This document shows positions 1,756 through 22,725 of a stretch of 64,000 nt of DNA, piece by piece. The notes below the pieces were generated by a model. That model was not told where the DNA came from. It worked only from the letters and a program-made list of their open reading frames with translations, and did not search any database. The stretch comes from Gammaproteobacteria bacterium (GTDB taxonomy: Bacteria; Pseudomonadota; Gammaproteobacteria; JAJPIJ01). Each line of letters opens with the position of its first letter. Position 1 is the first letter of the stretch. The position numbers and the translations under genes are program-made. The stretch is taken from positions 136,793 to 200,792 of the forward strand of contig JAJVIQ010000019.1 of assembly GCA_022071965.1 (NCBI GenBank), written 5' to 3'.

Positions 1756-2085
1756 GGGGCGCGAATGTTAACAGGCGACGGCCGGGCCTCCCGCCGCGCT
1801 GGCCGGCGGGCGGAAACTCCGATACCGGGATGGCTTCAGATATATGGACATTGCCATCGATTCTTTCACAGGACAACGGCGCTTATCTATAGTGGCCCGT
1901 ACAGTCGACGCTCCCCGGGCGCATGCCGGTGCCGGCGGATTGCCCCCCGCGCAAAGACCCTCTCGCCGGCGCCCGGTGCCGGCGGTCAGGGAAGCGGCCG
2001 GGTGACCGGAGGCATCACCCGGAGCACACTGTCCGGGCAGCCACCAGCCCGGCTTACCGATACGACCAACAAGAGGAGGTGACCC

Positions 2086-2745
2086 ATGGCATTACGCATA
2101 GGCGACGAGGCGCCGGACTTCACGGCGGAGACCACCGAGGGGTCCATACGCTTTCATGAGTGGATCGGGAACGGATGGGCGATCCTGTTCTCGCATCCCA
2201 AGGACTTCACGCCGGTCTGCACGACCGAGCTCGGCTACATGGCGCGGCTGAAGCCCGATTTCGAACGGCGCAACTGCAAGATCATCGGCCTGAGCGTCGA
2301 TCCGGTCAGCGACCACAAGCGCTGGGTCGGCGACATCCAGGAGACCCAGGGCCACGCGGTCAATTATCCGCTGATCGGCGATCCGGAGCTGAAGGTGGCG
2401 AAGCTCTACGACATGCTGCCCGCCGAGACACCGGGCAGCTCGCAGGGCCGCACGCCCGCGGACAACGCCACCGTGCGCTCGGTGTTCATCGTCGGGCCGG
2501 ACAGGAAGATCAAGGCGATGCTCGTCTACCCGATGACCTCGGGCCGCAACTTCGACGAGGTGTTGCGCCTGCTCGACTCGATACAGCTCACGGCCAGGCA
2601 CAAGGTCGCCACCCCGGTGAACTGGAAGCAGGGCGAGGACGTCATCATCGCCGGCTCGGTGAAGGACGAGGAAGCCAAGTCGATGTTCCCGGGCGGGTGG
2701 CGCGCGCCGAAGCCCTACCTGCGCATCGTCTCGCAGCCGAAGTAG
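2086..2745 (+). CDS. 1-Cys peroxiredoxin (Prx6-like)
   Basis: 219 aa. It carries the FTPVCTTE peroxidatic-cysteine motif and the thioredoxin fold pattern of 1-Cys Prx. A GGAGG-like RBS (aagaggagg) precedes the ATG. Confidence 0.85.
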   Translation: MALRIGDEAPDFTAETTEGSIRFHEWIGNGWAILFSHPKDFTPVCTTELGYMARLKPDFERRNCKIIGLSVDPVSDHKRWVGDIQETQGHAVNYPLIGDPELKVAKLYDMLPAETPGSSQGRTPADNATVRSVFIVGPDRKIKAMLVYPMTSGRNFDEVLRLLDSIQLTARHKVATPVNWKQGEDVIIAGSVKDEEAKSMFPGGWRAPKPYLRIVSQPK

Positions 2746-2830
2746 AGTTTCCTCCGCCGTCGTGTGGACAGAGATCTCTTGCCGTGATGCCCGCAACCCC
2801 GGCATCCGGCGGGGGATCGGTACGGTGGTG

Positions 2831-2858
2831 TTGCCGCCTTTGGCCTTCCTTTATACTG
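2831..2858 (+). promoter_or_regulatory. candidate sigma70 promoter for tRNA-Leu (TTGCCG, 16-nt spacer, TATACT)
   Basis: TTGCCG at 2831-2836 and TATACT at 2853-2858, about 20 nt upstream of the tRNA 5' end. Found by eye only. Confidence 0.3.
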
Positions 2859-2877
2859 GCCGCCCTCCCGACATCGC

Positions 2878-2965
2878 GCCGAGATGGCGGAACCGGCAGA
2901 CGCAGCGGACTCAAAATCCGCCGGGGTAACCCCCCGTGAGGGTTCGACTCCCTCTCTCGGCACCA
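2878..2965 (+). tRNA. leuX-like: tRNA-Leu(CAA), class II with long variable arm, CCA encoded
   Basis: GCCGAGATGGCGGAACCGGCAGACGCAGCGGACTCAAAATCCGCC...GGTTCGACTCCCTCTCTCGGCACCA. The acceptor stem GCCGAGA pairs with TCTCGGC, and the anticodon loop CUCAAAA gives anticodon CAA. It closely resembles E. coli leuX. Confidence 0.9.
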
Positions 2966-2966
2966 A
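2953..2966. repeat. attL-like copy of 14-bp direct repeat TCTCTCGGCACCAA (tRNA-Leu 3' end)
   Basis: Exact 14-mer shared with 10763..10776. This copy is the 3' end of the tRNA. Confidence 0.55.
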
Positions 2967-3157
2967 GTCCCCGTCCCCACGCCGCTCCAGCCGTCTCAGT
3001 CCGTCTACGTATCTAGCTGGAACTCAAGGTGTTTTTCGCGGTCTTACGCTCTACGCGTCCAAAATCGTCTCCATGAATCTCGTGTTTCGTGGGGGCATTT
3101 TTGGGGGCACCTGCCCCGCGAAATGGGGGCACATTTTTGCTGGGAGTCGAGTCCGAA

Positions 3158-4030
3158 ATGCCGTTGACAGTAGCCGCGATTAACCACGCCAGACCACGTG
3201 AGAAGGTCTACAAGCTCGCAGATGGTGGAGGCCTGTATCTTGAGGTCCATCCAACGGGCGCACGCTACTGGCGCTTGAAGTATCGCCACGCGAACAAAGA
3301 GCGTCGACTAGCAATTGGCGTATATCCCGATGTAACGCTCGCCGAGGCACGTACGGCGCGAGACAGTGCGCGCAAGCTCATCAAGAGCGGAAATGACCCG
3401 GTCGCGGTGAAGCGCGAGGTGCGCCGCAAAACCGAGTGCGAGGCGGCCAACACGTTCGAAATCATCGCCCGCGAATGGGTCGAGCACCAACGCGCACGCT
3501 GGACACCTGACCACGCAAGCACCGTCCTCCGGACCCTTGAGGCCAACGTGTTCCCAACCTTGGGGGCAAAGCCAATCACCAACATCACGGCGCCCGAACT
3601 GCTGGCGGCCATCCGCTCGGTTGAACGCCGCGATGCGCTGGAGGTTGCCTCCCGTGTGGCTCAGCGCTGCGGCGCGGTGTTCCGTTTCGCAATAGCGACG
3701 GGACCTACAACCCCGCTGCAGACCTTCGTGGCGCATTGAAGACAAGGAAGGTTACCCACCACCCCGCGCTCATGGCCAAGGACCTGCCGGAGTTCCTGGA
3801 TAACCTGGCTGCTTACGATGGCGATGAGCAGACTAAGAACGCCTTGAAACTCCTGATGCTAACCTTCGTCCGCACCGGTGAGCTTCGTGCCGCCGAGTGG
3901 AGCGAGTTCGACCTTGAGGGCGCGACTTGGCGCATACCGGCCGAGCGTATGAAGATGCGCGCACCTCACATCGTGCCGCTGTCGAAGCAGGCCGTCGAGG
4001 TCTTGAAGGCGCAGCAGGCACTTACCGGCC
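3158..4030 (+). pseudogene. int: P4-type tyrosine integrase, frameshifted and C-terminally truncated
   Basis: The N-terminus MPLTVAAINHARPREKVYKLADGGGLYLEVHPTGARYWRLKYR...RLAIGVYPDVTLAEARTARDSARKLIKSGNDP is the classic P4-integrase arm-binding domain. The reading frame breaks near 3712 at ...VFRFAIATG. The protein continues in the next frame (TYNPAADLRGALKTRKV...ELRAAEWSEFDLEGATWRIPAERMKMRAPHIVPLSKQAVEVL). Homology then ends near 4030, before the catalytic R..H..Y region. Confidence 0.75.
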
Positions 4031-4129
4031 TACCCGGGTTTCGAATTGTTGGCGGTTGGAAACCTGACAGCTCGGGAGCCTCCATAGCTAAACGCAAGAC
4101 GAATGGCACCAAGCCACCGCACCATCAAG

Positions 4130-4642
4130 ATGAACCGCGCCCCGGTGCTCACATTGTGGGCGGCCGTAGTGGCCGAGCGCTTGGGCTTCGACTGGGACGA
4201 GGCACTCACCATCGGTCGAGCCCTCGCCGGCCTGAACGCCTACGCCAAGGGCGTCTCCATCGGCCTGTTCCAGCCGACACCGAATGAGGTTAGGGAGCAG
4301 CGCCACAAGCTCCCCCCTGCGGAGACATTCACCGTCGACCTGCTGCATCGTGCGGTCCCGGCCGTCCATACCGGGCAGGGTGTGCGCGCACTGGACGAGG
4401 AGAAGCCCGCCGACCCGGCCAGCGTAAAGCAGTACCTGGAGGGCAAGTTCAAGGACGCCTTACCGGACGTGTACGAGGCTATGAAGACGCTTGCCGACGC
4501 CTACCCGCCAAGGAAACTCGCGGTAGAGGCCTACCACCTGTACGAGCAGTTCCGACCGGCCGTGCCCGCCGGGCAGCGTGGATGGGGTGCTGCCGGCGTA
4601 CTCGACCTCGACGCAATCAGAGGTCTGGCGCGGTTGGCCTAA
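4130..4642 (+). CDS. hypothetical protein (about 170 aa) of unknown function
   Basis: ORF 4103/4130..4642 (MNRAPVLTLWAAVVAERLGFDWDEALTIGRALAGLNAYAKGVSIG...). Its amino-acid composition looks coding. It is GC-rich, unlike the adjacent R-M genes. Its 3' end overlaps the res stop convergently by 26 bp. I recognise no family. Confidence 0.4.
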   Translation: MNRAPVLTLWAAVVAERLGFDWDEALTIGRALAGLNAYAKGVSIGLFQPTPNEVREQRHKLPPAETFTVDLLHRAVPAVHTGQGVRALDEEKPADPASVKQYLEGKFKDALPDVYEAMKTLADAYPPRKLAVEAYHLYEQFRPAVPAGQRGWGAAGVLDLDAIRGLARLA

Positions 4643-7600
4643 CATCCGCCGTTGCTGTCTCGGAGATCTGCGCCCCTACGTCACTTGCACGTTCCGCAAG
4701 CACGTACTGCCAGTAGCCGTAGGTTCCATCAGCATTCACTGCATTGGCCCACCGATGCGCCGCCTGCGCTTTCACGTCTTTCAGCGGGTCATACCCCTTC
4801 GTTTCAAATATCACAAACCGGTTGGATGTACCCTGCAGCCGGATGATGAAGTCGGGTATGTAGTCATGTGCCTGACCATCATGGAGATAAGGAATGGCAA
4901 ACCCGAGGTTGGCGTTCTTTACGAATGCTGAGACGTTGTCGTGAGTATCTATTGCGACAATAGCAGCCTGTTCCAGGCCGGAGTCGGCAACCATGAGGTT
5001 TAAATGACTCTTTTCAACTTGAACCACATTCTTGCTGGTCCAGAAATCGACTTCCGACGTGGTGCCCGGCCCGCGGTGCTTTTCAAACGACGGCAATTCC
5101 GCCGCCTCCCCTTGCATAACGTCCGGTTTAATGGCGGCGGTCAGTCGCTCGATGATCCAACCATAATAGGGGGATAGAAAGGCATCGAAGATGCTCGCGG
5201 GAGACAATGGCTTAACTCGCTCACGTAAATAACGGTCAACAATCTTCGCGATCTGCGGAAAAAGGGCGTGAGCTGGCGCTTCGCAGGAGGGTTGGGCGCA
5301 ATATTCTCGCGTCAGATCGCGCGCCATCTCAAACACCAGTGCCTGTAGGCGCTGGCCCGATCGGTAGGGATTGAGGTTCACGCTGACGATCTTTCCGGGG
5401 CCAAGCAACGAGTAGCGACCTTTGTTGCTTGGCACCCCGGCCTTCATTTCAACTTGTGGCGGGATTCTTACCGGATCCAGATCCAACGTTGCCACAGAGT
5501 TCCAATCAACGACAATACGATTAAGGATTTTTTGCCTGTATCCCATTACGCGAGGAAATTGAATTTCAAACTGCTTTTTCTGCGGAAGTGCATGGACGTG
5601 GAATCGCTTAGCGCGCGGTTGAGTAGGCGCACCCTGATTGGCCTTGAACGGAATGACCTCAAACGGCACTCCAAATATCTTCGCAACTTCCTCGCTGAGT
5701 AGCCCCGTGGTCTCGTCAATTTCGTAACTAGAACGCCGTAGCCCGCGACCCACCACCTGTTCGCACAGCAACTGCGACATGAATGGTCGCAGTCCGACGA
5801 TGTGAGTGACTGTGTTGCAGTCCCACCCTTCCGTCAGCATGCCGACGCTGACGATGCAGCGTATATCCCGACCCGGCGGGTGCGACGGGCGGCCGAGTTC
5901 TTTTGCCAGATCCTCGAAGCCATCGGGGTAAATTGGCCGCCCCGACCGATCGTTTGGCCAATTTACTTTGCCCACGGTGTCAAGCGTCAGCCGCATCCAA
6001 CGCATCTCGTCTGACTTCGCTTCATCGCTGTCTGTCTCGTGCACAACTTTGGTATCGACGCGAATTGTATGCGTCAACACGTCAGTGTTGCGTAGTTGCT
6101 CCAGCCGCGCCGACGCGATACCGGTTGGCGGTTTATCCTCTGCGAGCCACTCGTAGACTACCTTCGCGATTCGGGTGTTCTTGCAGACCAGAATAAACAC
6201 CGGCGGTCTTGGATCGTCAGTATTCCGGAGCCATTCCTTACGGGTCTGCTCCCACAACCCCCCCAACATGACTATCGGTGTGTATGCATACTGCAAGATT
6301 GCATCAGGTCTTGGATTGGCGCGCCGTCCACCACGCTGAGCAGCCGTCAGTTGAGGCAAAATCCAATGCCAGATGTTGAAGTACCCAGGAATCTCCTTGC
6401 CTGCCGTATCTCGCACCGCCAATTGCGGGATTTTCACCAGTCCCGACTCAATCGCGTCCGTCAACCCGAAATCGCTCACCACCCAAGGGAAGGTGCGATT
6501 GGTGTCCTGTCCGACCCGTCCGAGGTAATAGGGTGTCGCCGATAGATCCACACAGAAATTGATTCCTCGCAGCTTGTGAATACGGTCCAACCCGTCAATC
6601 CAGACAGTAGCTTCCTTGAAGAATTCGTCGATTTCCTCTTCATCGAATAAATCTTCCTCGCCCTCATCTGGCTCCGGTTTGCGGATGCGGTAGGCGTGAT
6701 GCGCCTCATCATTCAGCACGAGGATGTTTTTCTTTCCCCCAACCTCGCGCCCGAGTATTCGGTGAACGAGGGCCGTGTCGCTTTCAACGTACTTGCGCGA
6801 TTCGATGATTACTTTCTTCAGATTGCCGTCTATGTCGCACTCTTCCTCGATAATCTCAATCATTCCTGCATTAACCTGCCGCCGTAAATCCTCCAACGTC
6901 AGGTAGCGCGTGCCACGTGCCGTCGTCGACTTTTCTCCGATGGCGATCTTTTCCTTCACCCGTACCGGCTTGCCTGCCTTGGCAACCTTGGCGCTTGTCC
7001 CGCCAACTTGCACGGACTTCGGCTCGAATACGTGCCAGTTTGTGACTAGCACGCGCCCCTGCGTCATGAGCGGCATAAGGTGCTCAGGAATAAGGTCGCG
7101 GGTGCGGTAAAGACTCGCCTCGCCCGCCTCGGGATTCAACTCCGCCAAGCGGTTGCGGATGGTGACGTTGGGACAGACCACCAGCACCACATCGGAGAAC
7201 CGCCCGTCACTGCGATTGTTGAGCTTGTTAAGTATGCTCCACACGACCAACATGCCCATGACGGTCGTCTTGCCACTGCCAGTTGCCATCTTGCAGGCGT
7301 AGCGACGGAAGGCGCGATAGCCCTCGGCTCGGCGTTCCTCACTCATTTCATCCAGTGGCACATCGATACCTTGCAGGAAGTCCGACCGCGCCTCGGTGAG
7401 GAAAATAATCGTCTCCGCGGCTTCAAGCTGCGCGAAAAACAAACGATGCTTGCGTCCGTCGCGTCTCCAGTATTGAAGCAATTCTAATGAGGTGCGACTG
7501 ACACCGGGCCACTGCTGATCTCGCCACTCGCTGATCTGTTTTCGGACCTGATTTACCAACGTTAGATCTTGCCACTGCCCGCGCGCCTCATGTTCGCCAG

Positions 7601-7757
7601 CGTTGGATGTCCCCCGAGGTTCGCGATAGAAGTAACCGGCCGGACGGCGGCCTTTCCGCTCCTCTGGTGGTTCGCCTTCTGATATATACCAATATCGCGC
7701 CGGCTCCTCGTAGGGGCAGTTAAGGATTGGCTGCGGGACCTCGTAAGCCTCAGGCAC
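4617..7757 (-). CDS. res: Type III restriction enzyme Res subunit (SF2 helicase with C-terminal PD-(D/E)xK nuclease)
   Basis: 1046 aa. Walker A is CKMATGSGKTT and the DEAH box is LNDEAHHA. Helicase motif VI-like is QVVGRGLRR. The C-terminal YIPDFIIRL...FVIFETKG is a nuclease motif. It starts 2 bp after the mod stop. The region has visibly lower GC than its flanks. Confidence 0.85.
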   Translation of the reverse strand: MPEAYEVPQPILNCPYEEPARYWYISEGEPPEERKGRRPAGYFYREPRGTSNAGEHEARGQWQDLTLVNQVRKQISEWRDQQWPGVSRTSLELLQYWRRDGRKHRLFFAQLEAAETIIFLTEARSDFLQGIDVPLDEMSEERRAEGYRAFRRYACKMATGSGKTTVMGMLVVWSILNKLNNRSDGRFSDVVLVVCPNVTIRNRLAELNPEAGEASLYRTRDLIPEHLMPLMTQGRVLVTNWHVFEPKSVQVGGTSAKVAKAGKPVRVKEKIAIGEKSTTARGTRYLTLEDLRRQVNAGMIEIIEEECDIDGNLKKVIIESRKYVESDTALVHRILGREVGGKKNILVLNDEAHHAYRIRKPEPDEGEEDLFDEEEIDEFFKEATVWIDGLDRIHKLRGINFCVDLSATPYYLGRVGQDTNRTFPWVVSDFGLTDAIESGLVKIPQLAVRDTAGKEIPGYFNIWHWILPQLTAAQRGGRRANPRPDAILQYAYTPIVMLGGLWEQTRKEWLRNTDDPRPPVFILVCKNTRIAKVVYEWLAEDKPPTGIASARLEQLRNTDVLTHTIRVDTKVVHETDSDEAKSDEMRWMRLTLDTVGKVNWPNDRSGRPIYPDGFEDLAKELGRPSHPPGRDIRCIVSVGMLTEGWDCNTVTHIVGLRPFMSQLLCEQVVGRGLRRSSYEIDETTGLLSEEVAKIFGVPFEVIPFKANQGAPTQPRAKRFHVHALPQKKQFEIQFPRVMGYRQKILNRIVVDWNSVATLDLDPVRIPPQVEMKAGVPSNKGRYSLLGPGKIVSVNLNPYRSGQRLQALVFEMARDLTREYCAQPSCEAPAHALFPQIAKIVDRYLRERVKPLSPASIFDAFLSPYYGWIIERLTAAIKPDVMQGEAAELPSFEKHRGPGTTSEVDFWTSKNVVQVEKSHLNLMVADSGLEQAAIVAIDTHDNVSAFVKNANLGFAIPYLHDGQAHDYIPDFIIRLQGTSNRFVIFETKGYDPLKDVKAQAAHRWANAVNADGTYGYWQYVLAERASDVGAQISETATADVRPTAPDL

Positions 7758-7759
7758 GT

Positions 7760-10537
7760 CTACCGAGCCTCCTTCAGCGACTTCACGACCATTAACTCAT
7801 TGCCGCGGTCGTCGATGACTTTTACCGCCACTTGACCATGCTCGCCAGCTTCGAACGGTGCACTGACACTGCCGGCGAGATGTTCCCACACCGAGTCTTG
7901 GAACTCCCCTTTAAGCGCCCTCTTGAGGGAATCCCAAGCGCCTGTGCGGGGGAAAAATGCCTGGCAGACGTGAAAGCACAGGCCGTTGTAATCGGTGTCG
8001 AGGAACCAGGCCGGCACATCGTCACCTTTTCGCTGGTCCACCTCCATCGTCACGGGATCGAAAACATCCAGACCAAGCAATTTGACGGCATAGCACAATG
8101 GCTCATCCGCGACAGTCTTAACCTTGCTCACCTTGACCTCGGGAAGTCCACAGACGCTAAAGATCTGGCTGGAACGCATGTTCTTGAGCAAATCACCCAT
8201 GAGCAAATCGGGCGTTGCTTGCACGTACGTCGCGGGCACACCTACCGCCGCCTCGCACTTCTCGATCAGTTTTCGTGCGTCAGGCTGAATCGCAAAGCCG
8301 ATTACGTACAAGTAATCATAATGCTTGGCATGTGCCTCACGCGCCGCTTCGTAAACCAGTTTCTCGCTGACGGCACCACCCTCTGGTCCGAATACGATGG
8401 CAACAGGACGGCCGGATAAAGGCAACGTGCTGCTGTTCTCCTCGTCTGCGACCTGCAATGCCTCGTCAATCGATATCGGGCCTGGTATGTGCGCGACCTC
8501 AACAATCGCCTCAGCAGAAAGCGTGAGGGTCTTCGCTGGTGGGCGGACATTGCGCAGGGTGGCCGACTTACCGCCATCGATATGTAGCGCCGGCGAGCGG
8601 CGTAGCACTTCAAGCATGCGGTCGACGAAGCTGCCGTGCGACTCCGCCACGGTGGCGACGCCGGAATCCTCGACGCCGTCTCCCTCCCAGTCTATAGGCG
8701 TGGGGATGGTCGCCTCGACACAGAAGGGACCGGTGACTCTCGTGATTTTGTCATTAGTCTCTGGTCGGTCCACCAGCACCTCTTCAGCGGGCGGTTCGTC
8801 ATTGGCGATACTCCCGAGCGTAATATGCGGCACGATACCGCCGACCTCCTCGCCCTTGCTGTTCTGTCTCCGCTTGTAGACGAAACCGCCGGCAGGGCCG
8901 CGGTCGCACTCCTTCAGTTCGTAGTACGGGAACGTGGCAGTGAGCAGCCGTTGCCTCGCCAAAGCCAGTGGGACTCGGCTTGTATCAACGGTTATCCAGC
9001 GCCGCCCCCACTGTTCGGCGACATAAGCTGTGGTGCCGCTACCGCAAGTCGGATCCACGACAAGATCACCTGGGTCTGTGGTCATCAGCATGCAGCGTTG
9101 TATGACCTTGGCCGTTGTCTGAACCACATATGACTGCTCTTCCGTGAAGCTCCCGGCCCCGCTATCGGTCCATACGTTGTTCAAATACGCCACCGGGAAA
9201 TCATCGAGAAAAGATGCCGCCCGAACGTTATCCCCTACGGGGAAAACACGTCCAAGTTCCGCAAGACGCTGGAGACCACTCATGGTGAACCTCCAATGTT
9301 TGTTGTGCGGAACTCGGTATGAGCGACCCTTAAACTCGAAGACTTCGTCCGAGTTCTTGCTCGCGCCCTGAGCATATAGGGCCATACTCTGAAACAGGCG
9401 AATCCCCTTCGGTACCTTGTCGGGGTGCTGTTGCTCACCCATAGAAACTGTCTTGACGTCGCCAGCCGAATCAAAGTAGTACCGGAATGCTGCCAATCCT
9501 GCAGGCGCCTGATCCCGAGGAAAGAACAACTGCCGATATTTCATCCGCGACGGGTCTTTGGAGTACCAAAGAAGGTAGTCGCACACTGTCGGTAGACGTC
9601 CTGTATCTAACCCTCCCGTTTTCTTGAATGAAATTTGGCTCACGAACGATTCCGCTCCGAAAATTTCATCCATTACCTCGCGAACATGATGCACATTCTC
9701 ATCTGAGATCTGCACGAATATGCTGCCGGACGGTGCAAGTAAGTCGCGGGAGAGCAATATCCGGTCGCGCAAATAGGTGAGATAGGAGTGCAGGCCCAAC
9801 TCCCAGGTGTCGCGGTAGGCCTTAACCATCTCCGGCTCGCGCGTCATGTCCTCGTCGTCATTGTGGGCTACGTCGCGCCTGCGCACGAATGGTTGGAAAT
9901 TACTCCCGAATTTCACCCCGTAGGGCGGGTCCATATATATCATCTGCACCTGCCCTCCCATGCCCTCATAGTGCAGAAGCGAGTTCATCGCTGCGAGCGA
10001 GTCCCCGAGCACCATACGGTTTGTCCAGCCGTTCATGTGCTCGTAGGCGCGGAGCACCTGTTCGTGAATCGGATGCTGCCGGTCCCCGAACAGGTCAAAC
10101 AGGTCGATCTGCCTATCGCGCTTGTGGCCTTTCAGCGTTTCGAGGATGGCGCGGGTGCTTAGTCGTTCATGGATGAACAGCGGCAATGTCGGCACGTCGA
10201 ATGACAGGCGCTCGGCCTTGCCAGCCCAGTTAAGGAAGGGCTTGCTGAAAGCGCGAAGTTTCTCGGCGGCGGCCTTGGCCTCGCCCAAATCCTTGGCTTC
10301 AAGAATCTGGCGAATCAGCGTCTCACCTTGCTCCCTCGTCGGGTTCTGTCCATCCCAATCCAACGCCGGAGACAGTGAAGAATCGAATCGGTATGTTTTT
10401 GGTGGCTTCTTCTTCCTGAACTGTGCCTGTGTGCCGACCTCTGGGCGCAGTAGCAATGAGGCGGTAGGGTGACTGTAATTTTCAGTTTGTTTTCCTGGTT
10501 GGCCAGTAGCTTTCTCTCGGCCCTTTTTCCTCGGCAT
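7760..10537 (-). CDS. mod: Type III R-M Mod subunit (beta-class N6-adenine/N4-cytosine DNA methyltransferase), unusually long
   Basis: Motif IV IYMDPPYGVKFGSNF precedes motif I VVDPTCGSGTTAYVAEQWGRRWITVD, a circular permutation typical of Type III Mod. There are about 400 aa after motif I. The ORF is open to 10612 (alternative starts at 10612 and 10570). The ATG at 10537 (MPRKKGREK) follows a G-rich RBS. Confidence 0.85.
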   Translation of the reverse strand: MPRKKGREKATGQPGKQTENYSHPTASLLLRPEVGTQAQFRKKKPPKTYRFDSSLSPALDWDGQNPTREQGETLIRQILEAKDLGEAKAAAEKLRAFSKPFLNWAGKAERLSFDVPTLPLFIHERLSTRAILETLKGHKRDRQIDLFDLFGDRQHPIHEQVLRAYEHMNGWTNRMVLGDSLAAMNSLLHYEGMGGQVQMIYMDPPYGVKFGSNFQPFVRRRDVAHNDDEDMTREPEMVKAYRDTWELGLHSYLTYLRDRILLSRDLLAPSGSIFVQISDENVHHVREVMDEIFGAESFVSQISFKKTGGLDTGRLPTVCDYLLWYSKDPSRMKYRQLFFPRDQAPAGLAAFRYYFDSAGDVKTVSMGEQQHPDKVPKGIRLFQSMALYAQGASKNSDEVFEFKGRSYRVPHNKHWRFTMSGLQRLAELGRVFPVGDNVRAASFLDDFPVAYLNNVWTDSGAGSFTEEQSYVVQTTAKVIQRCMLMTTDPGDLVVDPTCGSGTTAYVAEQWGRRWITVDTSRVPLALARQRLLTATFPYYELKECDRGPAGGFVYKRRQNSKGEEVGGIVPHITLGSIANDEPPAEEVLVDRPETNDKITRVTGPFCVEATIPTPIDWEGDGVEDSGVATVAESHGSFVDRMLEVLRRSPALHIDGGKSATLRNVRPPAKTLTLSAEAIVEVAHIPGPISIDEALQVADEENSSTLPLSGRPVAIVFGPEGGAVSEKLVYEAAREAHAKHYDYLYVIGFAIQPDARKLIEKCEAAVGVPATYVQATPDLLMGDLLKNMRSSQIFSVCGLPEVKVSKVKTVADEPLCYAVKLLGLDVFDPVTMEVDQRKGDDVPAWFLDTDYNGLCFHVCQAFFPRTGAWDSLKRALKGEFQDSVWEHLAGSVSAPFEAGEHGQVAVKVIDDRGNELMVVKSLKEAR

Positions 10538-10762
10538 AACTACCCCCCAACTGAAGATTTCCTTGTTCATCACCGACGGTCCCCAGTCGGTTGCCAATTG
10601 TTCACGACACATAGAGTACAGGTGACTGCCTCAGATTCCCAAGCTTGGCAGCGAAGTCAATCGCGCCACTTAGGCTTCTGCTGCAACTAGATGCCGACGG
10701 CCACTGTACCGCTCGCCCATCCCGCCCCAAGCTGGTTCAATTTCCGCCCAACGGCGGTTGAG

Positions 10763-10776
10763 TCTCTCGGCACCAA
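10763..10776. repeat. attR-like copy of 14-bp direct repeat TCTCTCGGCACCAA
   Basis: Exact match to the tRNA-Leu 3' end (2953..2966), in the intergenic region just beyond the mod start. A given 14-mer is expected about 5e-4 times by chance in 64 kb. Confidence 0.55.
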
Positions 10777-10996
10777 TTGCTAGCCGGATCGGGTATCATC
10801 ATACTGCGCCGATTTGAAGTGACCAGCTTGCGGGCGCGTAACAAATACAGCTAACGCGGGCAGGAACTCATGAACCCGCCTTGGCTGCCAAGCTGACGCG
10901 GGTCTTCTATTGCACCGCATAGTTAGATAGACAACTTGCCATTGCCACGGTCTATCCGGCCCTCCGTGCCGCGGATGCGCGGCATGATTTCCCCGA

Positions 10997-12042
10997 TCAT
11001 GCGTCGGTGTCCTCTGGCACCAGCATCCACACGCGCTTCAGCGGCAGTTCGGCCTGTATCTCCGCCGGCAGTCGCTCATAAGTCCGGTAAATCGCCTCGA
11101 CGAGATCGCGGCTCTCCCATAACCGCACCGTGAAATGGCCCTGCCGAGCCTCACTCAGCACTGACCCTTTGAAACCGCCCCAACACACGAGCAAGCCTTG
11201 CTCCGCCTTGAAGGTCTGCATCGAGCCCTGCAACGTCCGGTAAATCGTGACGTCAGCGGGACTGTTTTGCGACTTCACCTGCACGCAGAGTCGCGGGACG
11301 TCAAGGCCGAGGGGACCGCGTCCACCTAGGATGTCGACACCTCCATCCGCCCCGGGAGGCGACACTTTTGTTACCCAACCGTCGGCCTGTAGCACCGCAT
11401 CCACGAGGCTCGCTAACGCGTGACCCGCAAACCGTGTCTGGATATGTGCCACGATTTGGTCATGGGCGAGCTGCGCGAGATCGGGAACTTCCTCGGGTTC
11501 GAGTGTGGGTGGGGCCGCGCCCGCCTTTTTCGGCTTGCCGAGCGCTACCGAGGGGCCGGGATCCGGCTTGCCGGCCAGCACCGCTGCGACACGCCGCTCC
11601 GCGTCGTTGCGTGAGATGTTGCAGACCGTCATGAAGGCGCCGAACGAGTGCAGCAGGTCTTGCTCGAACGCGGTGCGCGGCACGTCCGGCCGCAACCATT
11701 CCACCGCTCGGGTATGGCGCAAATCGCTGCCGACCTTCTGGTATCGGTAAGGCCCTTTCACACGCCCGATGGCAATCTGTGATGTCAACTTGCGTGGTAG
11801 CACGACGAGGTCGCCCTCGTTCATCGCAATCACAAATGCCCCGTGATATTGCCGACAGCGCGCGGCTTGGCACCCGGCAGGCTGGCTTCGACGATCTTGA
11901 AGATGGCATCGTAATCCTTCGCCCCCTCCAGTGATGGGATGTGCCGGAAACCGATAATGGCGAGATTACCTTCTAGAGCGGCCTCCTCGTCCTCCCCCAG
12001 CCTGCCCGCTCGCGTCAGATAGACCTTTGGTACCTCACTCAT
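10997..12042 (-). pseudogene. mrr-like: Mrr-like (Type IV) restriction endonuclease, split by a frameshift
   Basis: The upstream 70-aa ORF (MSEVPKVYLTRAGRLGEDEEAALEGNLAIIGF...AKPRAVGNITGHL) matches the N-terminus of Mrr-cat family restriction enzymes. The downstream 278-aa ORF continues the same family (MNEGDLVVLP...) and carries the Mrr catalytic core GGVDILG...LCVQVKSQ. The two ORFs are joined by an ATGA start/stop overlap at 11830-11833. Confidence 0.65.
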
Positions 12043-12169
12043 TGCATTCCTCCGGAAGTTTCAAATAGCAAAGCATAAATAGGTACCAGTTGAAGGAACT
12101 CGGGTGGCGCTTGGAGAGCGGATCGTTTGCGAAGACCAAACCGTGCGCAAGGAGGCTACCCGATGAAAG

Positions 12170-12420
12170 TAAGTGTACTGGAGATGCCGTGGCCCGTCTG
12201 GCGGCAACTGCAGCGCGTGGTGAAGAAGTCGCGAGACGTCGACCATGTATGATGTGCGCCGAGGTTGCTGAGGCTGCACGTACTGGGCGGTAATGTGAGC
12301 GCGGCCGCGCAGGTGTGTGGCGCCTCACGCGGGGCACTGCGGCATTGCCCAACGCTCTACGAGAGCGGCGGTAAGCAGCCCTCGCACCGAAGTGGCGTGG
12401 GCTCAAAAATATTAGCTCAG
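12170..12420 (+). pseudogene. IS630/IS481-like transposase N-terminal HTH remnant
   Basis: Frame-broken peptide ELPWPVWRQLQRVVKKSRDV ... RLLRLHVLGGNVSAAAQVCGASRGALRHCPTLYESGG resembles the N-terminal HTH of IS630/IS481-family transposases. No DDE domain follows. Confidence 0.35.
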
Positions 12421-12425
12421 AGATC

Positions 12426-13112
12426 ATGCGCTACGCCATAGCCACAGGCCGTCGCAAGGACGACCCGGCCGCGGCTTTGAAAGGAGCATTCAAGACCCGA
12501 ACAGCTGAGAATCACCCCCACCTCGAACGCGCCGACCTGGGGCCATTCCTGCGCAAACTCCATGACTACGCTGGTCGGCACGAAACACGGATCGCCGTAC
12601 AACTGCTGATGCTGACTGCCGTTCGGACTGGCGAGCTGCGGGCCGCCAAGTGGACCGAGATAGATTTCAGCGCCAAAGAATGGAGCATCCCGGCGGATCG
12701 GATGAAGATGCGGTCACCGCACGTCGTTCCGCTCTCCCGGCAGGCCATTCGATTGCTGGAAGAACTGAAGACCTACACCGGCTACAGCGAGTACCTGTTC
12801 CCCAACCATGGCAAGCACCCGCACATGAGCGAGAACACGGTCAACAAGGCACTGCACGGCCTCGGTTACAAGGGCGAGCTCGTGGGCCACGGCTTTCGCG
12901 CCACATTCAGCACAATCGCCAATGAATCCGGGAAGTTCAATCCGGATGCCATCGAGCGGTCGCTGGCGCATAAGGACAAGAACCCTGTTCGGGACATATA
13001 CAACCGCGCCAAGTACCTGCCGGAGCGACGGAAGCTGATGCAGTGGTGGGCAGACGATCTCGATGCTGCCCAGAATGGAGCGAAGATTGTGCGCCTCACA
13101 CGACGTGATTAG
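12426..13112 (+). pseudogene. int: P4-type integrase fragment (catalytic domain only, N-terminal half missing)
   Basis: Begins MRYAIATGRRKDDPAAALKGAFKTR..., corresponding to the middle of P4-type integrases. It includes HVVPLSRQAIRLL, HGFRATFST and a C-terminal RD-containing tail. There is no arm-binding domain. Confidence 0.75.
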
Positions 13113-13208
13113 CCGCACAAACGCGGTTTCGGCCTCTTTGACTATTGCCAGACGAGATCCTAAACTTCTACCCGACTACTACCCCGATGGTTTCGACTGT
13201 CGGGCGCG

Positions 13209-13235
13209 GGGCCCCTTCGGGGGCCCTAGCTTTTT
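13209..13235 (+). terminator. Rho-independent terminator (7-bp GC stem, UUCG tetraloop, T5)
   Basis: GGGCCCC-TTCG-GGGGCCC followed by TAGCTTTTT, located between the integrase fragment and the NYN gene. Confidence 0.55.
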
Positions 13236-13250
13236 CTGAGGGCATGGACG

Positions 13251-13889
13251 ATGAATAAGGCGCCCCTCCGCACCTACGTCTATATCGACGGGTTCAATTT
13301 TTACTACGGGCAAGTCAAAGGCACCCCCTGGAAGTGGCTCGATCCCGTCGCCCTGTTTCGGAAAGTCCTCCGCCCTCAAAACGACATTCGCAAGATCAAG
13401 TATTTCACCGCACGAGTCGAACCCACACCCTACGACCCTGACGCGAACGTTCGACAGGACACATACCTCAGGGCACTGACGGCTCACTGCCCAAACGTAG
13501 AGCTACATTTTGGTCACTTTCTCCGTCATCAGATTTTCATGGAGAACGCCAATCCACCGCCTGGCAAGGTCTGCGTTTGGAAGAACGAAGAGAAGGGCTC
13601 CGACGTAAACCTCGCGCTGCACCTGCTGAATGATGCCTGGAGGGATGAGTACGACTGCGCCGTCGTCGTCTCGAATGACTCCGATCTTGCTGAGGCACTT
13701 AGAATGGTTCGCGAACAGAACGGCAAAGTCATCGGTGTGGTTACTCCAGGCGCACCGAAACGGAGAACATCATGCCAACTCGCCAAGTATGCTCACTTCA
13801 TCAGCCCGATAAGAAAGTGGGCTCTGCAGGCCAGTCAGCTACCTTCCCCGATTCCTGGAACGACGATCAGGAAGCCGGATACCTGGTAG
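13251..13889 (+). CDS. NYN-domain (PIN-like) ribonuclease family protein
   Basis: 212 aa. Motifs YIDGFNFYYG, GSDVNLALHL and VVSNDSDL are typical of the NYN/LabA-like nuclease fold. A GAGGG RBS precedes the ATG. Confidence 0.75.
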   Translation: MNKAPLRTYVYIDGFNFYYGQVKGTPWKWLDPVALFRKVLRPQNDIRKIKYFTARVEPTPYDPDANVRQDTYLRALTAHCPNVELHFGHFLRHQIFMENANPPPGKVCVWKNEEKGSDVNLALHLLNDAWRDEYDCAVVVSNDSDLAEALRMVREQNGKVIGVVTPGAPKRRTSCQLAKYAHFISPIRKWALQASQLPSPIPGTTIRKPDTW

Positions 13890-13948
13890 CTTCACAGTTG
13901 CCTCGGTGCAGAGCCTGGGGGTGCGGCCTTGCTGCTCGTGCGCATGCG

Positions 13949-14037
13949 GATTCCGGTCGATGCCGGGCAGTGATTCCGGTCCATGCCGGCACGGATTCCG
14001 GCTGATGCCGGCAGCGATTCCGGCGCATGCCGGCAGG
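13949..14037. repeat. four tandem 22-bp direct repeats (GATTCCGGYNNATGCCGGSASN), consistent with IS21-family multiple terminal repeats
   Basis: Repeats at 13949-13970, 13972-13993, 13994-14015 and 14016-14037, lying 60 bp upstream of the istA fragment. No spacers, so not CRISPR. Confidence 0.7.
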
Positions 14038-14099
14038 TTCGGTGGGACGGGTAACCAACGCTACCGTAGCGCCTTTTCCAACGTGGAGAGGGGGCGACG

Positions 14100-14669
14100 G
14101 TGGCGCAAACGAGGTTACCCATGCGAAAGATCCGCGAGGTATTGCGACTCAGGTATGAGCACGGCCTGAAGGACGGCCAGATCGCCGCGGCCATTGGCTC
14201 GGCGCGCTCCACGGTGCAAGAGTGCGTGCGCCGGGCACAGCAGGCAGGGTTGAGCTGGCCGCTGCCCGAGGGGTTGGACGAGCTGGCGCTGCAGTCGCTG
14301 TTGTATCGGCGCGAGGTGCCGCTGTCGCGCACGCCGGCACCGGATTTCGCCAGGCTGCATGCCGAGCTCAAACGTCCCGGGGTGACACGGCTGCTGCTGC
14401 GGCAGGAGTACAAGGCCGAGCGCCCCGATGGCTGGCAGTACAGCGTGTTCTGCGATCAGTACCGTCGCTGGCTGGCGCGTCAGGATGTGGTGCTGCGCCA
14501 GCAGCACGTGCCCGGCGAGAAGCTGTTCGTGGACTACGCCGGGCAGACGGTGGCGGTCATCGATCGGCACACCGGTGAGAGCCGCCCCGCGCAGATCTTC
14601 GTGGCCGTGCTCGGCGCCTCCAGCCACACCTATGCCACTTGTTCTTCGTGGACGGCGGGGCGGCAATGA
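14100..14669 (+). mobile_element. istA: IS21-family transposase IstA, N-terminal fragment (truncated)
   Basis: MRKIREVLRLRYEHGLKDGQIAAAIGSARSTVQECVRRAQQAGLSWPLPEGLDE... matches the IstA N-terminus. The ORF is interrupted after about 180 aa, where an IS5-family fragment begins on the opposite strand. Confidence 0.75.
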
Positions 14670-15105
14670 TGGTGGCATCGACGATCGTGCCGGTGCCGAT
14701 CTTGACCCCCTGCGCCTCCAGGTGACGATGCACCTGCTGGAACAGCTTCACGCCCAGGTTGTGCTCCTCCAGCAGATGGCGGAAGCGCAGCACCGTGGAT
14801 TCATCCGGCGCCGGCGCATCGGCCAGATCCACCCCGGCGAAGCGGCGCATCGAGGCCGAATCGTACAGCGCCTCTTCCACGCCCGGATCCGAGAGATTGA
14901 ACCATTGCTGCAGGAAGTACACCCGCAGCATCATCTCCAGTTCCTTGGGCGGGCGACCGTCGCCGGCCTTCGGGTATTTCGGCGCAATCAGCCTGCACAG
15001 CTCGGCCCATGGCACGATGCGCTCCATCTCGGCCAGAAACTTCGCCCGCTTCGTCGTCCTGGAGAACTTCTCAAAGCCCGTGCCCAGGGTCAGCTGTTTG
15101 CTCAA
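14557..15105 (-). mobile_element. IS5-family (IS1182/IS5-like) transposase N-terminal fragment
   Basis: MSKQLTLGTGFEKFSRTTKRAKFLAEMERIVPWAELCRLIAPKYPKAGDGRPPKELEMMLRVYFLQQWFNLSD is the hallmark IS5-family N-terminus. The DDE domain is missing. An imperfect inverted repeat at about 15140-15180 may be the IS end. Confidence 0.65.
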
Positions 15106-15251
15106 TGCCGTCTCCGATGTGTTTCGGTGTGCCTACCGATCAGATCGTGGACTTTTGCAGAGGTTCCTTAGACTGCTTCTAGGCAGAACCTCTTCTGGCC
15201 GCATCGATCAGCGGTAAGCAATTCCCGCAAGAAAGAGCGACAGATCGTGCC

Positions 15252-16028
15252 TTACCCTGCTTGCCTCAGGTTCGCGCCGAGGACATCGCTGACCAGTTCG
15301 CCCCCGCCTTCGCGAATGGCATCGTGCAAGATCACTCTTACTTCGCGTAGAAACTCCTCGGAGTGCGCGTCAAGAGCCGGTCCAGGCACAGGCGCGGAAT
15401 TCTCGTAAATCATGCGAATGACGCTAGCGCGGTCATAGGTGGACCCGCGTCCGCGATAGTCAAACGCTCTCATCCAGTCCCTGCGCGGGACGCGCAACAG
15501 CTTCTGTTCCACATAGCCGTGCAACCGAGCGAAAACAGCGCGCTGGACCTGGGACAGCGCGGCGTCGGCTTCCGGCTCGCTCGGCGCACGCGGCTGCCAG
15601 CGGATCGGCTTGTCGAGAAACTTAGTAATCGATTCCGACAGGCGCGCCACGAGATCCGCGACGGGCTTAAGATCCTTGTACTCGCCCTCATTGATGTCGA
15701 GCACCACGCGGCGGTTCATCGCCTTGACTTCTGCCCAATGCGCCTTGCGGACAGTGGACGATCCCGTAAACAGGATGGCGTTCCAGCGCGCATGAAACTC
15801 GGCAGCAGCCGCTTGGATGGCGAGAACGAGTCCAGCCGTATCGTAAACGGGACAGACTTCCGCAACGTCCGCCGGCATGATGGCGGCTTCGCAGAAATCC
15901 ATCAGCTTGAGCAACTCGCTTACGGGTCCGCGCTGCTTCTCTGTCAGGGGGCGGTTGAGGAAACCGAGCATGAAGCAGCGTTCATCAAGCCCGCGTTCAA
16001 TCGCCCGGCGGTGGTGCTCCGAGATCAT
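15252..16028 (-). CDS. hypothetical protein, 258 aa, unknown function
   Basis: The ORF has a balanced, coding-like composition (MISEHHRRAIERGLDERCFMLGFLNRPLTEKQRGPVSELLKLMDFCEAAIMP...). The opposite-strand ORF is Arg-rich junk. I recognise no family. Confidence 0.45.
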   Translation of the reverse strand: MISEHHRRAIERGLDERCFMLGFLNRPLTEKQRGPVSELLKLMDFCEAAIMPADVAEVCPVYDTAGLVLAIQAAAAEFHARWNAILFTGSSTVRKAHWAEVKAMNRRVVLDINEGEYKDLKPVADLVARLSESITKFLDKPIRWQPRAPSEPEADAALSQVQRAVFARLHGYVEQKLLRVPRRDWMRAFDYRGRGSTYDRASVIRMIYENSAPVPGPALDAHSEEFLREVRVILHDAIREGGGELVSDVLGANLRQAG

Positions 16029-16200
16029 GCGCTACGCCATTGCCACCGGCCGGCGTCGCGACGACCCTGCAGCCGCTCTCAAGGGAGCGTTCCGGACACG
16101 CGCGGCCACACACCTCCCCGCCCTGTCACGCACCGAACTCGGTCCCTTCCTGCGGGCGCTGGTCGAATACCCCGGCCGTACCGTGCGGGTGGTAAAGACG
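16027..16200 (+). pseudogene. int: third P4-type integrase remnant (short internal fragment)
   Basis: MRYAIATGRRRDDPAAALKGAFRTRAATHLPALSRTELGPFLRALVEY... begins at the same residue as the fragment at 12426. Homology is lost after about 55 aa. Confidence 0.55.
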
Positions 16201-16311
16201 ATATCCAAGGACCTCGGATCGTCTCATTACGAGCCATATTGGCCGTTGACCCGATCATTCGACGCATGGATACGCGGGAGGACGCCCGAATCGATGGCTC
16301 TGGAAGTTCGT

Positions 16312-18756: not shown

Positions 18757-20654
18757 ATGAAGTCAATCCGATACGCGGTTCCCTCACCCTCCTGCAGGAC
18801 GATGGCAAGTCTTGCCTGATCGGCCAGCAATGGCACGATCTGCAGACCCAGTGAAGGTGACTTTCCGAGTGCTATGTTCGGCGGCAATCCCACGCCGTCA
18901 TCGGCAATCAACAGGCGCCGCGGCCTGCCGCTCTCGACCTCAAGCCTGATGTGAATGCGGCCGTCCCGATTGCACGGGAATGCATGCTGTAGGGCATTCG
19001 ACAAGAGTTCGTTCACGAGCAGCCCGCAGGGAATCGCGCGCTGCAGCTCCAGGTGGGCCTCAGGCAGAGCCGCGTCGATCACGATGCGCGGTACTGCGGT
19101 GTCGGGCATTGAGCTGCGAAAGACATTCTCAACCAGACGCCGCAGGTATTCGCCGAGATTCACGCGCGAATGTTCCTTGCGCTCGTAGAGCAGCTCATGC
19201 GTCAAGGCCATCGCCGCGATACGGTTGCGCGATTCAGTGAGGGCCGCTTTGACAACTTCGTCCCGGCTGCTGTCCGCCTGCAGGCTGAGCAGACTGGAAA
19301 TCACCTGCAGATTGTTTTTCACGCGGTGATGTATCTCGTCGAGCAGAAGGGTTTTCTCCTTGAGTGCGGCCTCCACGTGCTCTTGCGCCTGCCGGCGCAG
19401 CGTGATGTCCGTGATTGCGGCGAGCACGGCAGGACCGGCACCCGTGTCGATGAGGCTCAGTCCGACCTCCACGGGAAACTCGGTACCGTCCTTGCGGATC
19501 GCGTACACGTCACGGCCGGCTCCCATTTGGCGGGTTACGGGATCGCGGAAGAACTCCGCGCGCAGACCTACATGCTCGCTGCGCGCGCGCTGCGGCACCA
19601 ACATTTCAATCGACTTGCCCAACAGCTCGTCGCGCATATAGCCGAACAGCCGCTCCGCCTGGTTGTTGACTAACAATATGACTCCACTTTGATCGGTTAT
19701 AAGCATGGAGGTGGGTGCCGCAAGCACGGCGTTTCGGAAACGCTCCTCGCTATCACGCAGGGCTTTTTCGGTGCGTTTGAGATCGCTGATGTCGGCGTAG
19801 GTGCCCAGCATTCCGCCGGCCTGGCCGTGCTGATTGAGCAGAGGCACCTTGGAGATGGACAGCCACACCTGAGCGCCTTCGGCGTCGAGCCTTTCTTCGA
19901 CAACATTGAGCATCGGCTTACGAGAGTCGATCACCCGTGCACGGCTGTCGGCAAGAGACTCGGCGATGGAGGCGCGGGCGGGAATGTCGGTGTCGACCAG
20001 TCCAACGACGTTGCTTCTGCGGACATCGCGTCGAAACGCGCGGTTGGCGCCGAGGAAACGGCCGTCGAGGTCCTGCCAAAAGATTGGCTGCGGTATGACG
20101 TCAATTATCGACCGCAACCAGTGCTCCGAAGCGATTGCCCGATCACCCTGTTTGGTCAGTTCATGCATGACGCCGATCTGCTCGGCAGCAAGGGATAATG
20201 CGTCTACGCAGCCACGACAGTCCTGTCGCGGCTCACCATCCAAAACGGCGAGGAAACCCACCGATCTGCCTCTCTCTTCGAGGATGGCGACGCTGGTCAG
20301 AAAGCGCATCGCGCCGTCGCTGCCTTCCGCAAGCTCGCGAAAGCGCGGATCGGCAAGGGTATCTTTGACAATCAAAGGGACATCCGCCTGCGGTGCATGA
20401 CATGCAAGCAGCCGGACTGCGGCAGAGGTCGACGCGACTCCATGACCCGCCTCCAGCCCGCCTAGACCCTCTAGGCCGAGGCGTACGTACGCCCTCGCCA
20501 CGCGGCAGAGCCGCGCCGACAACCGTACAGCACTTTGCAGAAATCGCCGCCGAACCTCGGCGCCGTGCGTTGTTTGGACGAAGGGTTCAGTGCCGTTATC
20601 CGCGACCATGGCTTGCGCCCAATCAGACATATACGATCGCAGCATTTCCACCAA
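18729..20654 (-). CDS. sensor histidine kinase, HisKA_2/HWE-type, with GAF and PAS domains
   Basis: 641 aa. The H-box EIHHRVKNNLQVISSLLSLQ is HisKA_2. A C-terminal HATPase region (LLVNELLSNALQHAF...DDGVGLPP) is present. It overlaps the downstream response-regulator gene by 28 bp. Confidence 0.8.
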   Translation of the reverse strand: MVEMLRSYMSDWAQAMVADNGTEPFVQTTHGAEVRRRFLQSAVRLSARLCRVARAYVRLGLEGLGGLEAGHGVASTSAAVRLLACHAPQADVPLIVKDTLADPRFRELAEGSDGAMRFLTSVAILEERGRSVGFLAVLDGEPRQDCRGCVDALSLAAEQIGVMHELTKQGDRAIASEHWLRSIIDVIPQPIFWQDLDGRFLGANRAFRRDVRRSNVVGLVDTDIPARASIAESLADSRARVIDSRKPMLNVVEERLDAEGAQVWLSISKVPLLNQHGQAGGMLGTYADISDLKRTEKALRDSEERFRNAVLAAPTSMLITDQSGVILLVNNQAERLFGYMRDELLGKSIEMLVPQRARSEHVGLRAEFFRDPVTRQMGAGRDVYAIRKDGTEFPVEVGLSLIDTGAGPAVLAAITDITLRRQAQEHVEAALKEKTLLLDEIHHRVKNNLQVISSLLSLQADSSRDEVVKAALTESRNRIAAMALTHELLYERKEHSRVNLGEYLRRLVENVFRSSMPDTAVPRIVIDAALPEAHLELQRAIPCGLLVNELLSNALQHAFPCNRDGRIHIRLEVESGRPRRLLIADDGVGLPPNIALGKSPSLGLQIVPLLADQARLAIVLQEGEGTAYRIDFMCPISGENR

Positions 20655-22686: not shown

Positions 22687-22725
22687 GCATCCACCTCCAT
22701 CATCGTTTCTCTCCCGCGCCACGGG

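Follow-up and report, generated by a model that had tools for sequence, protein, structure and literature searches.

The DNA analysed here, called the window throughout, is a stretch of 64,000 nucleotides from contig JAJVIQ010000019.1 (positions 136,793 to 200,792) of an uncultured gammaproteobacterium (assembly GCA_022071965.1). Close to its left end lies a gene for tRNA-Leu(CAA) (2878-2965, + strand; predicted by ARAGORN), the target of integration at this locus, whose 3' end carries one copy of a 14-bp direct repeat. Four genes are located between this copy and a second one just past the start of the methyltransferase gene mod: a remnant of a P4/CP4-57-type tyrosine integrase gene (int1), an open reading frame of 179 codons (ORF179), and the restriction-modification (R-M) genes res and mod. 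The preliminary description of this stretch had listed the same contents and the same two repeat copies, both of which are exact, and had regarded the interval as a self-contained defence islet bounded by the repeat. Comparison with relatives places the second repeat copy inside a longer variable region, in which the R-M pair probably belongs to the newest layer of a composite island.

The tRNA-Leu(CAA) folds into a cloverleaf with a perfect acceptor stem. The left copy of the repeat TCTCTCGGCACCAA (2953-2966, + strand), assigned as the core of the left attachment site (attL), covers the 3' strand of the acceptor stem, the discriminator base, CCA and one extra base (that is, the acceptor 3' strand followed by ACCA and A). 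The right copy is found at 10763-10776. These two copies, both on the + strand, are the only ones in the window, and no third one appeared there when one mismatch was allowed; in dinucleotide shuffles, 0.03 matches are expected under the same settings (one mismatch, both strands, 64-kb window). In a blastn-short search of the window with the last 49 nt of the tRNA gene, the copy at 10763 was the sole match (E 0.008), and no other match was longer than 11 nt. The possibility, raised in the preliminary description, that the 14-mer is a common genomic word did not hold in the 1.6 Mb of fetched loci. In these loci the 12-14-mer was encountered at tRNA 3' ends (of tRNA-Leu in the relatives and of various tRNAs in phage tRNA arrays), in four loci with an identical copy of the island, and at four tRNA-less sites on viral contigs. 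The viral loci had been retrieved by a search with the tRNA 3' 16-mer and contain the 12-14-mer by construction; they were mostly phage tRNA arrays, and no related integrase was found near the four tRNA-less matches.

It is unlikely that the second 14-mer is a chance match, in which case the 18.8-kb variable region described below would be either one mosaic island or a set of unrelated insertions lacking an internal attachment site. Such a coincidence would be easier to accept for a repeat as short as this one, with no other module boundary keeping a repeat copy and with adjacent sequence that is not a canonical island end. However, besides the low expectation and the BLAST result given above, the second copy has the same orientation as the first, ends exactly at the tRNA 3' terminus, and coincides with a step in GC content from 56% in the R-M pair to 63% in the adjoining Mrr-type gene. 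The right copy is therefore best read as a displaced tRNA 3' fragment, the right attachment site (attR) of the module at 2966-10776 (module 1). Directly before it stands the heptamer GGTTGAG, possibly a degenerate form of the T-loop sequence GGTTCGA, a resemblance that is suggestive only. As a separate observation, three Logan contigs (L001, L096 and L097, assemblies of SRR8427163 and SRR10609167) end inside the tRNA gene, at window positions 2962, 2936 and 2934; these ends are consistent with an assembly-graph branch at the shared tRNA sequence and possibly reflect population heterogeneity at the site.

The integrase gene int1 starts at position 3158, 193 nt past the tRNA gene, and can be followed on the + strand to approximately position 4027 with Pfam models and with tblastn searches using the integrase from a related locus, L082 (see below). 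Its product has the domains Arm-DNA-bind_3 and Phage_int_M, but of the 172 positions of Phage_integrase it covers 3-82 only, and it also matches NCBIfam PRK09692. The gene has one frameshift near 3700, and its homology stops near 4027 after '...AQQALTG', at about residue 300. Because the catalytic His-x-x-Arg and Tyr are gone, int1 is dead. Its nearest full-length relatives are CP4-like integrases with 60-65% identity; the L082 integrase is 47-50% identical over residues 12-311 (tblastn). Three + strand repeats of the type TGGGGGCA are located directly upstream of the int1 start (3090-3097, 3102-3109 and 3124-3131, as mapped for GGGGGCAC), and are putative arm-type binding sites of the integrase.

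The link between integrases of this type and tRNA-Leu(CAA) is provided by another Logan contig, L118, in which an integrase 82% identical to int1 lies directly past a tRNA-Leu(CAA) gene (63-148) and three GGGGGCA repeats are preserved in number and spacing. The last 32 nt of this tRNA are identical to those in the window, whereas its 5' half and variable arm differ, and L118 thus comes from a different host. Its acceptor stem is bulged (5' GCCGGAG vs 3' CTCTCGGC), as would be expected if an element or island had supplied the 3' strand, although this is suggestive only. The composition of the repeat and the placement of the L118 integrase bear out site-specific integration into the tRNA gene, as the preliminary description had proposed. 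Choice of target appears to be conserved only among close relatives of int1 and is not inferable at 62% identity, since a Ralstonia integrase at that distance adjoins tRNA-Thr(TGT).

The next gene, ORF179 (4103-4642, + strand; 179 aa), has no match in Pfam, NCBIfam, PADLOC or PHROG. Proteins homologous to it at 47-59% identity, annotated as hypothetical, are encoded on alphaproteobacterial plasmids of Azospirillum, Roseomonas and Rhodovastum, where the neighbouring genes encode ParB, a strawberry-notch-like nucleoside triphosphatase and zeta toxin, and in none of the contexts examined is an R-M pair adjacent. ORF179 is a gene of the mobile-element backbone type, unlinked to the R-M pair elsewhere.

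The R-M pair occupies the opposite strand and, from the intactness of its motifs, would be the only clearly functional cargo of the island. Both genes are full-length: mod (7760-10612, - strand) encodes a protein of 936-950 aa, the shorter length resulting from the start at MNKEIF chosen by gene callers, and res (4617-7757, - strand) encodes a protein of 1046 aa. The mod gene is upstream, with 2 nt between its stop codon (7760-7762) and the start codon of res (7755-7757). Mod is a beta-class N6/N4 DNA methyltransferase with a C-terminal extension of about 350 aa, in which DPPY at residue 228 stands ahead of DPTCGSGTT at residue 520, the beta-class order with motif IV before motif I. It matches Pfam N6_N4_Mtase and the PADLOC model MTase_III PDLC03632 (481 bits), and its matches to the Mod subunits in the PDB entries 6k0w and 4zcf are weak (E 1.7e-9 for EcoP15I Mod, 4zcf). 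No simple-sequence repeats were found in mod, and thus none pointing to phase variation. The sole sigma-70-like promoter match upstream of mod and pointing to it (10798-10825, - strand) is located beyond the second repeat, in the neighbouring module; it is a consensus match only.

Res contains the superfamily 2 (SF2) helicase motifs GSGKT160, DEAH350, SAT406, TEGWD642 and QxxGRxxR667 and a C-terminal PD-ExK motif formed by D969, E985 and K987, all three of which are invariant in 28 homologues; by these motifs, Res appears intact. Among Pfam models, ResIII scores above its cut-off and RE_endonuc just under (20.5 vs 23.4). The family assignment of Res is provided by NCBIfam NF046055, 'BPTD_3080 family restriction endonuclease', which it matches over positions 2-968 of 970 with 1033.2 bits (cut-off 800), whereas the model of canonical Type III Res proteins, PRK15483, gives 27.9 bits against a cut-off of 564, and the PADLOC REase_III models reach at most 29.5 bits and cover one helicase motif. 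Searches of PDB sequences by sequence and by family profile yielded no usable solved structure for Res, and EcoP15I Res was not among the profile matches; an AlphaFold2 model built with 28 homologues (about 70% identical) is too poor for use, with a predicted local distance difference test score of 53.5 and a predicted template modelling score of 0.33.

The Res family is large (7481 hits at E<=1e-100), and members with 67-75% identity are spread across Burkholderiales, Brocadia, Moorella, Nitrospirae and Syntrophus. In every context examined, a methyltransferase of about 900-1150 aa precedes Res, in some cases separated from it by one or two inserted genes, and mod and res are conserved together across many unrelated contexts, including plasmids and other defence islands without an int1-type integrase. 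Res homologues carry the name BPTD_3080 family in RefSeq plasmid annotations; no literature was found under 'BPTD_3080'. The pair resembles the EcoP15I and EcoP1I Type III systems in several respects: mod is followed by res after 2 nt, Mod is of the beta class with DPPY before the FxGxG-type motif, and Res combines an N-terminal SF2 DEAH helicase with a C-terminal PD-ExK nuclease. It differs from them in the placement of Res in NF046055, far under the PRK15483 cut-off, in a Mod that is about 300 aa longer than that of EcoP15I, and in the genes embedded between mod and res in some relatives. Thus, the Type III label given in the preliminary description is correct for the architecture and motifs and does not extend to the Res family: the pair is Type III-like in architecture and belongs to a named but apparently uncharacterised family outside the canonical Type III Res family. 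From the intact motifs we infer an R-M activity in which Mod would methylate the host DNA and Res would cut unmethylated incoming DNA in an ATP-dependent reaction, and the pair could possibly stabilise the island by post-segregational killing.

The genes of module 1 differ in base composition. The GC content is 61-62% in int1 and 66% in ORF179 (GC content at third codon positions, GC3, 0.81), and it falls to 55.7% in res (GC3 0.64) and 56.6% in mod (GC3 0.66), with the lowest 500-nt windows at 52%; a value near 50%, as estimated earlier by eye for res and mod, was too low. Core DNA of the left flank has 67% GC, and core genes on both sides have GC3 values of 0.85-0.92. The earlier estimate of flanks in the mid-60s was adequate for the left side and failed on the right, where the DNA between the second repeat and position 21758 has a mean GC content of 60.6% and gene GC3 values of 0.65-0.84. 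Compared with the core values, this GC3 range marks the right-hand stretch as foreign rather than core-like. Over the whole of 2967-21758 the GC3 values are 0.64-0.84, and core values return only after about 21.76 kb.

This mosaic leads to another scenario for module 1, a possible but doubtful one, in which the repeats and int1, perhaps with ORF179, are older, and mod-res arrived later by illegitimate or homologous recombination that deleted the 3' half of int1 together with the original cargo. A GC step is located at about 4620-4750 (62% in int1 and 66% in ORF179, 56% in the R-M pair), some 75-100 nt separate the end of int1 from ORF179, and the convergent genes ORF179 and res overlap by 26 nt. 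The behaviour of the homologues agrees with this scenario as well, as mod-res moves as a self-contained unit in plasmids and in other defence islands without an int1-type integrase, and ORF179 homologues are never beside such an R-M pair in the contexts examined. On the other hand, neither repeats nor a transposase are found at the ends of the cassette, mosaic GC content within a single island is common, and a plain internal deletion accounts equally well for the truncated integrase.

The extent of the island was established by comparison with relatives, which were obtained by a QueA homology search combined with gene context and by searching for the exact 30-mer upstream of the tRNA gene in Joint Genome Institute (JGI) metagenomes. 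The best QueA matches are 90-92% identical and the next group about 72%, which places the organism among uncultured Gammaproteobacteria. A search of genome contigs with the 1-Cys peroxiredoxin encoded beside the tRNA gene revealed no relative, the protein being too conserved (best matches 74-80% identical, from many phyla), and no exact match to the Mod, Mrr or EAL regulator proteins was obtained, probably owing to start-codon choice. Over the stretch with the tRNA and peroxiredoxin genes, the window is 91-93% identical to L082 (GCA_041395385.1) and the JGI contig L089 and 88% identical to a second JGI contig, L090; the tRNA-Leu sequence alone is identical in the window, L082 and L089. To the left of the tRNA gene, the window (1756-2085) lacks the genes for a phosphate-selective porin and a DUF2292 protein that are located between QueA and peroxiredoxin in L082 (7525-10000); DUF2292 adjoins QueA in L085 and L086 too.

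In L089 and L090 the site is empty, with no integrase. The tRNA-Leu gene is followed by genes for an NAD-epimerase and a class I/II aminotransferase (2.6 kb, 67.4% GC; L089 1427-4033, L090 1003-3609), and a homologue of window 21759-23187, which carries a response regulator (RR)-HATPase gene, comes after the aminotransferase gene. Homology of the window to both contigs resumes at 21759, and the variable region is thereby delimited as 2973-21758, or 18.8 kb. Since it extends to 21758, the right repeat is internal and does not border core DNA. Moreover, the NAD-epimerase and aminotransferase genes are missing from the window, which implies that flanking core DNA was deleted along with the distal end of the island. 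In L082, the same tRNA gene is occupied by a different island of the P4-like satellite type (L082 1-6646; 56% GC), with genes for a full-length integrase of 414 aa, AlpA, a RepB primase, a D5 primase-helicase and a terminase small subunit; in the integrase, about 25 aa (residues ~300-325) diverge locally in a way that resembles compensating frameshifts. Two relatives being empty at this site and one differently occupied, tRNA-Leu(CAA) is an integration hotspot. The L082 island shares with the window the target, the 3' end of the same tRNA-Leu(CAA), and an integrase that is 66-72% identical to the two further integrase remnants described below; it differs in its full-length integrase, in its AlpA, primase and terminase genes, in the absence of R-M genes, and in an integrase only 47-50% identical to int1.

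Given these boundaries, it is very unlikely that the locus contains one discrete 7.8-kb islet of int1, ORF179, res and mod, set in its native surroundings with both repeats bordering the core. The repeat pair does bracket exactly these four genes, and the GC content is lowest inside this interval. Yet L089 and L090 contradict such an islet, as conserved DNA resumes at 21759 and not at 10777, and what follows the repeat on the right has foreign GC3 values and includes two integrase remnants along with insertion sequence (IS) and defence genes. The recency of acquisition claimed by the preliminary description was borne out only in part: the R-M genes remain intact and show no compositional amelioration, but the catalytic half of the integrase is already lost, and four further metagenome assemblies contain the identical island. 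In each of these, which stem from other runs, a Logan contig matches window 2218-10846 with 100% identity, from which we conclude that the island is fixed in that population; Res itself is 100% identical to NFCOHLIN_02247 of a gammaproteobacterial metagenome-assembled genome (MAG) in NCBI.

Beyond the right repeat, the first gene is a pseudogene of an Mrr-type restriction endonuclease (10997-12045, - strand; Pfam Mrr_cat), the PADLOC candidate PDC-S02. Uncorrected, it covers positions 72-344 of the 346 positions of the model PDLC04815; after frame correction, its 348 aa cover positions 2-344 with 422 bits, and the gene is complete apart from a single frameshift in a G-run near 11836-11848, which could be either a real inactivation or an assembly error of the MAG. 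It is followed by int2, the 3' two-thirds of a second integrase gene (12414-13112, + strand; residues 178-396), whose tblastn match at 12414-13073 is 66% identical to the L082 integrase. Directly downstream of int2 there is a full-length NYN-domain gene (13251-13889, + strand; phrog_7929), the PADLOC candidate HEC-09, which gave no phage protection in a test (bioRxiv 10.1101/2024.01.29.577857). The adjoining IS debris consists of an IS21-family end with four 22-nt repeats (13947-14036), an istA fragment of IS21 (14100-14669, + strand), whose 3' end is overlapped by an IS5-family fragment, and this IS5-family transposase fragment (14557-15105, - strand; DUF772); in NCBIfam, the istA and IS5 fragments match positions 1-154 of 294 in NF033546 and 1-136 of 285 in NF033581, respectively.

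An ORF of unknown function (15252-16028, - strand) and int3, a 58-codon scrap of a third integrase gene (16006-16179, + strand; residues 175-232; 72% identical to the L082 integrase), precede two signalling genes of foreign GC3: an RR-PAS-GGDEF-EAL gene (16312-18756, - strand) and a PAS-HisKA_2 kinase gene (18729-20654, - strand). Both have GC3 values of 0.70-0.71 and are missing at this locus in the relatives; they adjoin a native cluster of similar cyclic di-GMP and two-component genes (21769-28960). The region ends with about 1.1 kb of decayed debris (20655-21758) up to the junction with conserved DNA. Within this debris, a small frame with an in-frame stop (21249-21539, - strand) looks helix-turn-helix-like by eye, and a 67-aa ORF lies alongside (20994-21197); neither half of the frame has a match in Pfam, nor does the C-terminal half in PHROG.

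The three integrase remnants, mapped by tblastn with the L082 integrase, are all on the + strand and retain about 300, 219 and 58 codons with growing distance from the tRNA gene. No intact integrase is present anywhere in the region, int2 and int3 being without their 5' parts and int1 without its catalytic half; with no integrase able to excise it, the island is a fixed relic, in agreement with the immobilisation proposed earlier. In integrase coordinates, int2 and int3 begin at almost the same codon, no more than about 12 nt apart (residues 175-179), in a shared GAGATCATGCGCTACGCCAT (12414-12430 and 16006-16030); the upstream DNA of the two remnants is unrelated, and the frameshift of int1 is about 30 nt further along the gene (region ~3690-3736). 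The chance of two integrase cuts so close together is about 2%. If this is not chance, one could speculate that codons 175-179 of P4-type integrase genes are a breakage or insertion hotspot that captures defence cassettes, such as Mrr/PDC-S02, and disarms the island. Separately, BPTD_3080 systems, being very widespread and lacking both a solved structure and a literature under that name, may work unlike classical Type III systems; we regard these proposals as highly improbable.

Taken together, these data lead us to propose, with a probability of roughly 70%, that 2973-21758 is a composite, immobile island built by repeated P4/CP4-57-type integration at the 3' end of tRNA-Leu(CAA), with the R-M module as its newest part. 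In this proposal, each incoming element would recombine with the intact tRNA 3' end, regenerate the gene and push older inserts outward. For module 1, int1 would have catalysed recombination between the chromosomal tRNA gene and a copy of its 3' end carried by the element, regenerating the tRNA (left repeat) and displacing the old 3' fragment (right repeat); the attachment core of int1-type elements would include TCTCTCGGCACCA. At the arrival of this module, the site would already have held older islands, of which int2, int3 and their cargo would be the remains. We infer that module 1 is the most recent because it is proximal to the tRNA gene, and the decay gradient of the integrases from the tRNA gene outward fits this order. 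In subsequent decay, int1 would have lost its catalytic half through a frameshift and a deletion, and the remaining element backbone probably went with it. Deletions would also have taken the 5' portions of int2 and int3 along with the remaining module boundaries, Mrr/PDC-S02 would have been frameshifted, IS elements would have entered and then broken up, and the distal end of the island would have disappeared with the two core genes for the epimerase and aminotransferase.

Several observations weigh against this history. Only one internal copy of the repeat exists: no further degenerate copies of the tRNA end were detected in the window, neither between the int2 and int3 segments nor at the distal end at 21758, and because of their absence the tandem model requires deletions at module boundaries. 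Immediately beyond the repeat there is no integrase but a 1.65-kb Mrr segment, and the integrase gene that comes after it lacks the 5' third, which calls for a further replacement event. The repeat is short, and little weight can be given to the GGTTGAG upstream of it as a T-loop remnant. No relative with an intact module 1 was found among those examined, and the R-M pair, at 56% GC compared with 62-66% in int1 and ORF179, may not have come with int1. Finally, the R-M activity is predicted from sequence alone, the AlphaFold model of Res being too poor to add to it.

The locus has close counterparts among known islands. In Enterobacteriaceae, P4/CP4-57-type integrases act at tRNA-Leu(CAA) in the leuX-associated islands, for example PAI II of E. 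coli 536, and in such islands the integrase lies directly past the tRNA gene, the opposite border carries a short repeat of the tRNA 3' end, the GC content is foreign, and frequent decay of the integrase fixes the island in place. The window shares with them the tRNA-Leu(CAA) gene (the equivalent of leuX), the adjacent integrase, the distal repeat, the foreign GC content and the decayed integrase. It differs in its host, an uncultured gammaproteobacterium with about 68% GC, in the repeat of 14 bp, in a cargo of defence rather than virulence genes, and in a deletion that took the array's distal end and adjoining core genes with it. Tandem arrays of islands at tRNA and transfer-messenger RNA genes have been catalogued by Islander (PMC4383910) and are exemplified by the Dehalococcoides ssrA islands (PMC3146451). 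As in those arrays, several integrases of the same orientation follow one tRNA gene (tDNA) in the window, a displaced tDNA fragment lies between modules, and the newest module would be nearest the gene. Unlike them, the window keeps one displaced fragment, its two older integrases are truncated at the 5' end, and its older modules are heavily rearranged by IS elements; the copy at 10763 is the only extra tDNA fragment found, the other module boundaries and the distal end having none.

The locus is thus a decayed composite tDNA island, an ordinary and well-known kind. The value of its reconstruction lies mostly in annotation, since it establishes how far the defence-rich island of this uncultured gammaproteobacterium truly extends (18.8 kb) and proposes how its layers built up. 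It also carries a caution for similar analyses, as a pair of direct repeats at a tRNA gene can delimit one module of a tandem array and not the whole island. It further means that tRNA-Leu(CAA) is an integration hotspot outside enterobacteria too, and it flags an intact member of a widespread and seemingly uncharacterised family of Type III-like R-M systems, BPTD_3080.

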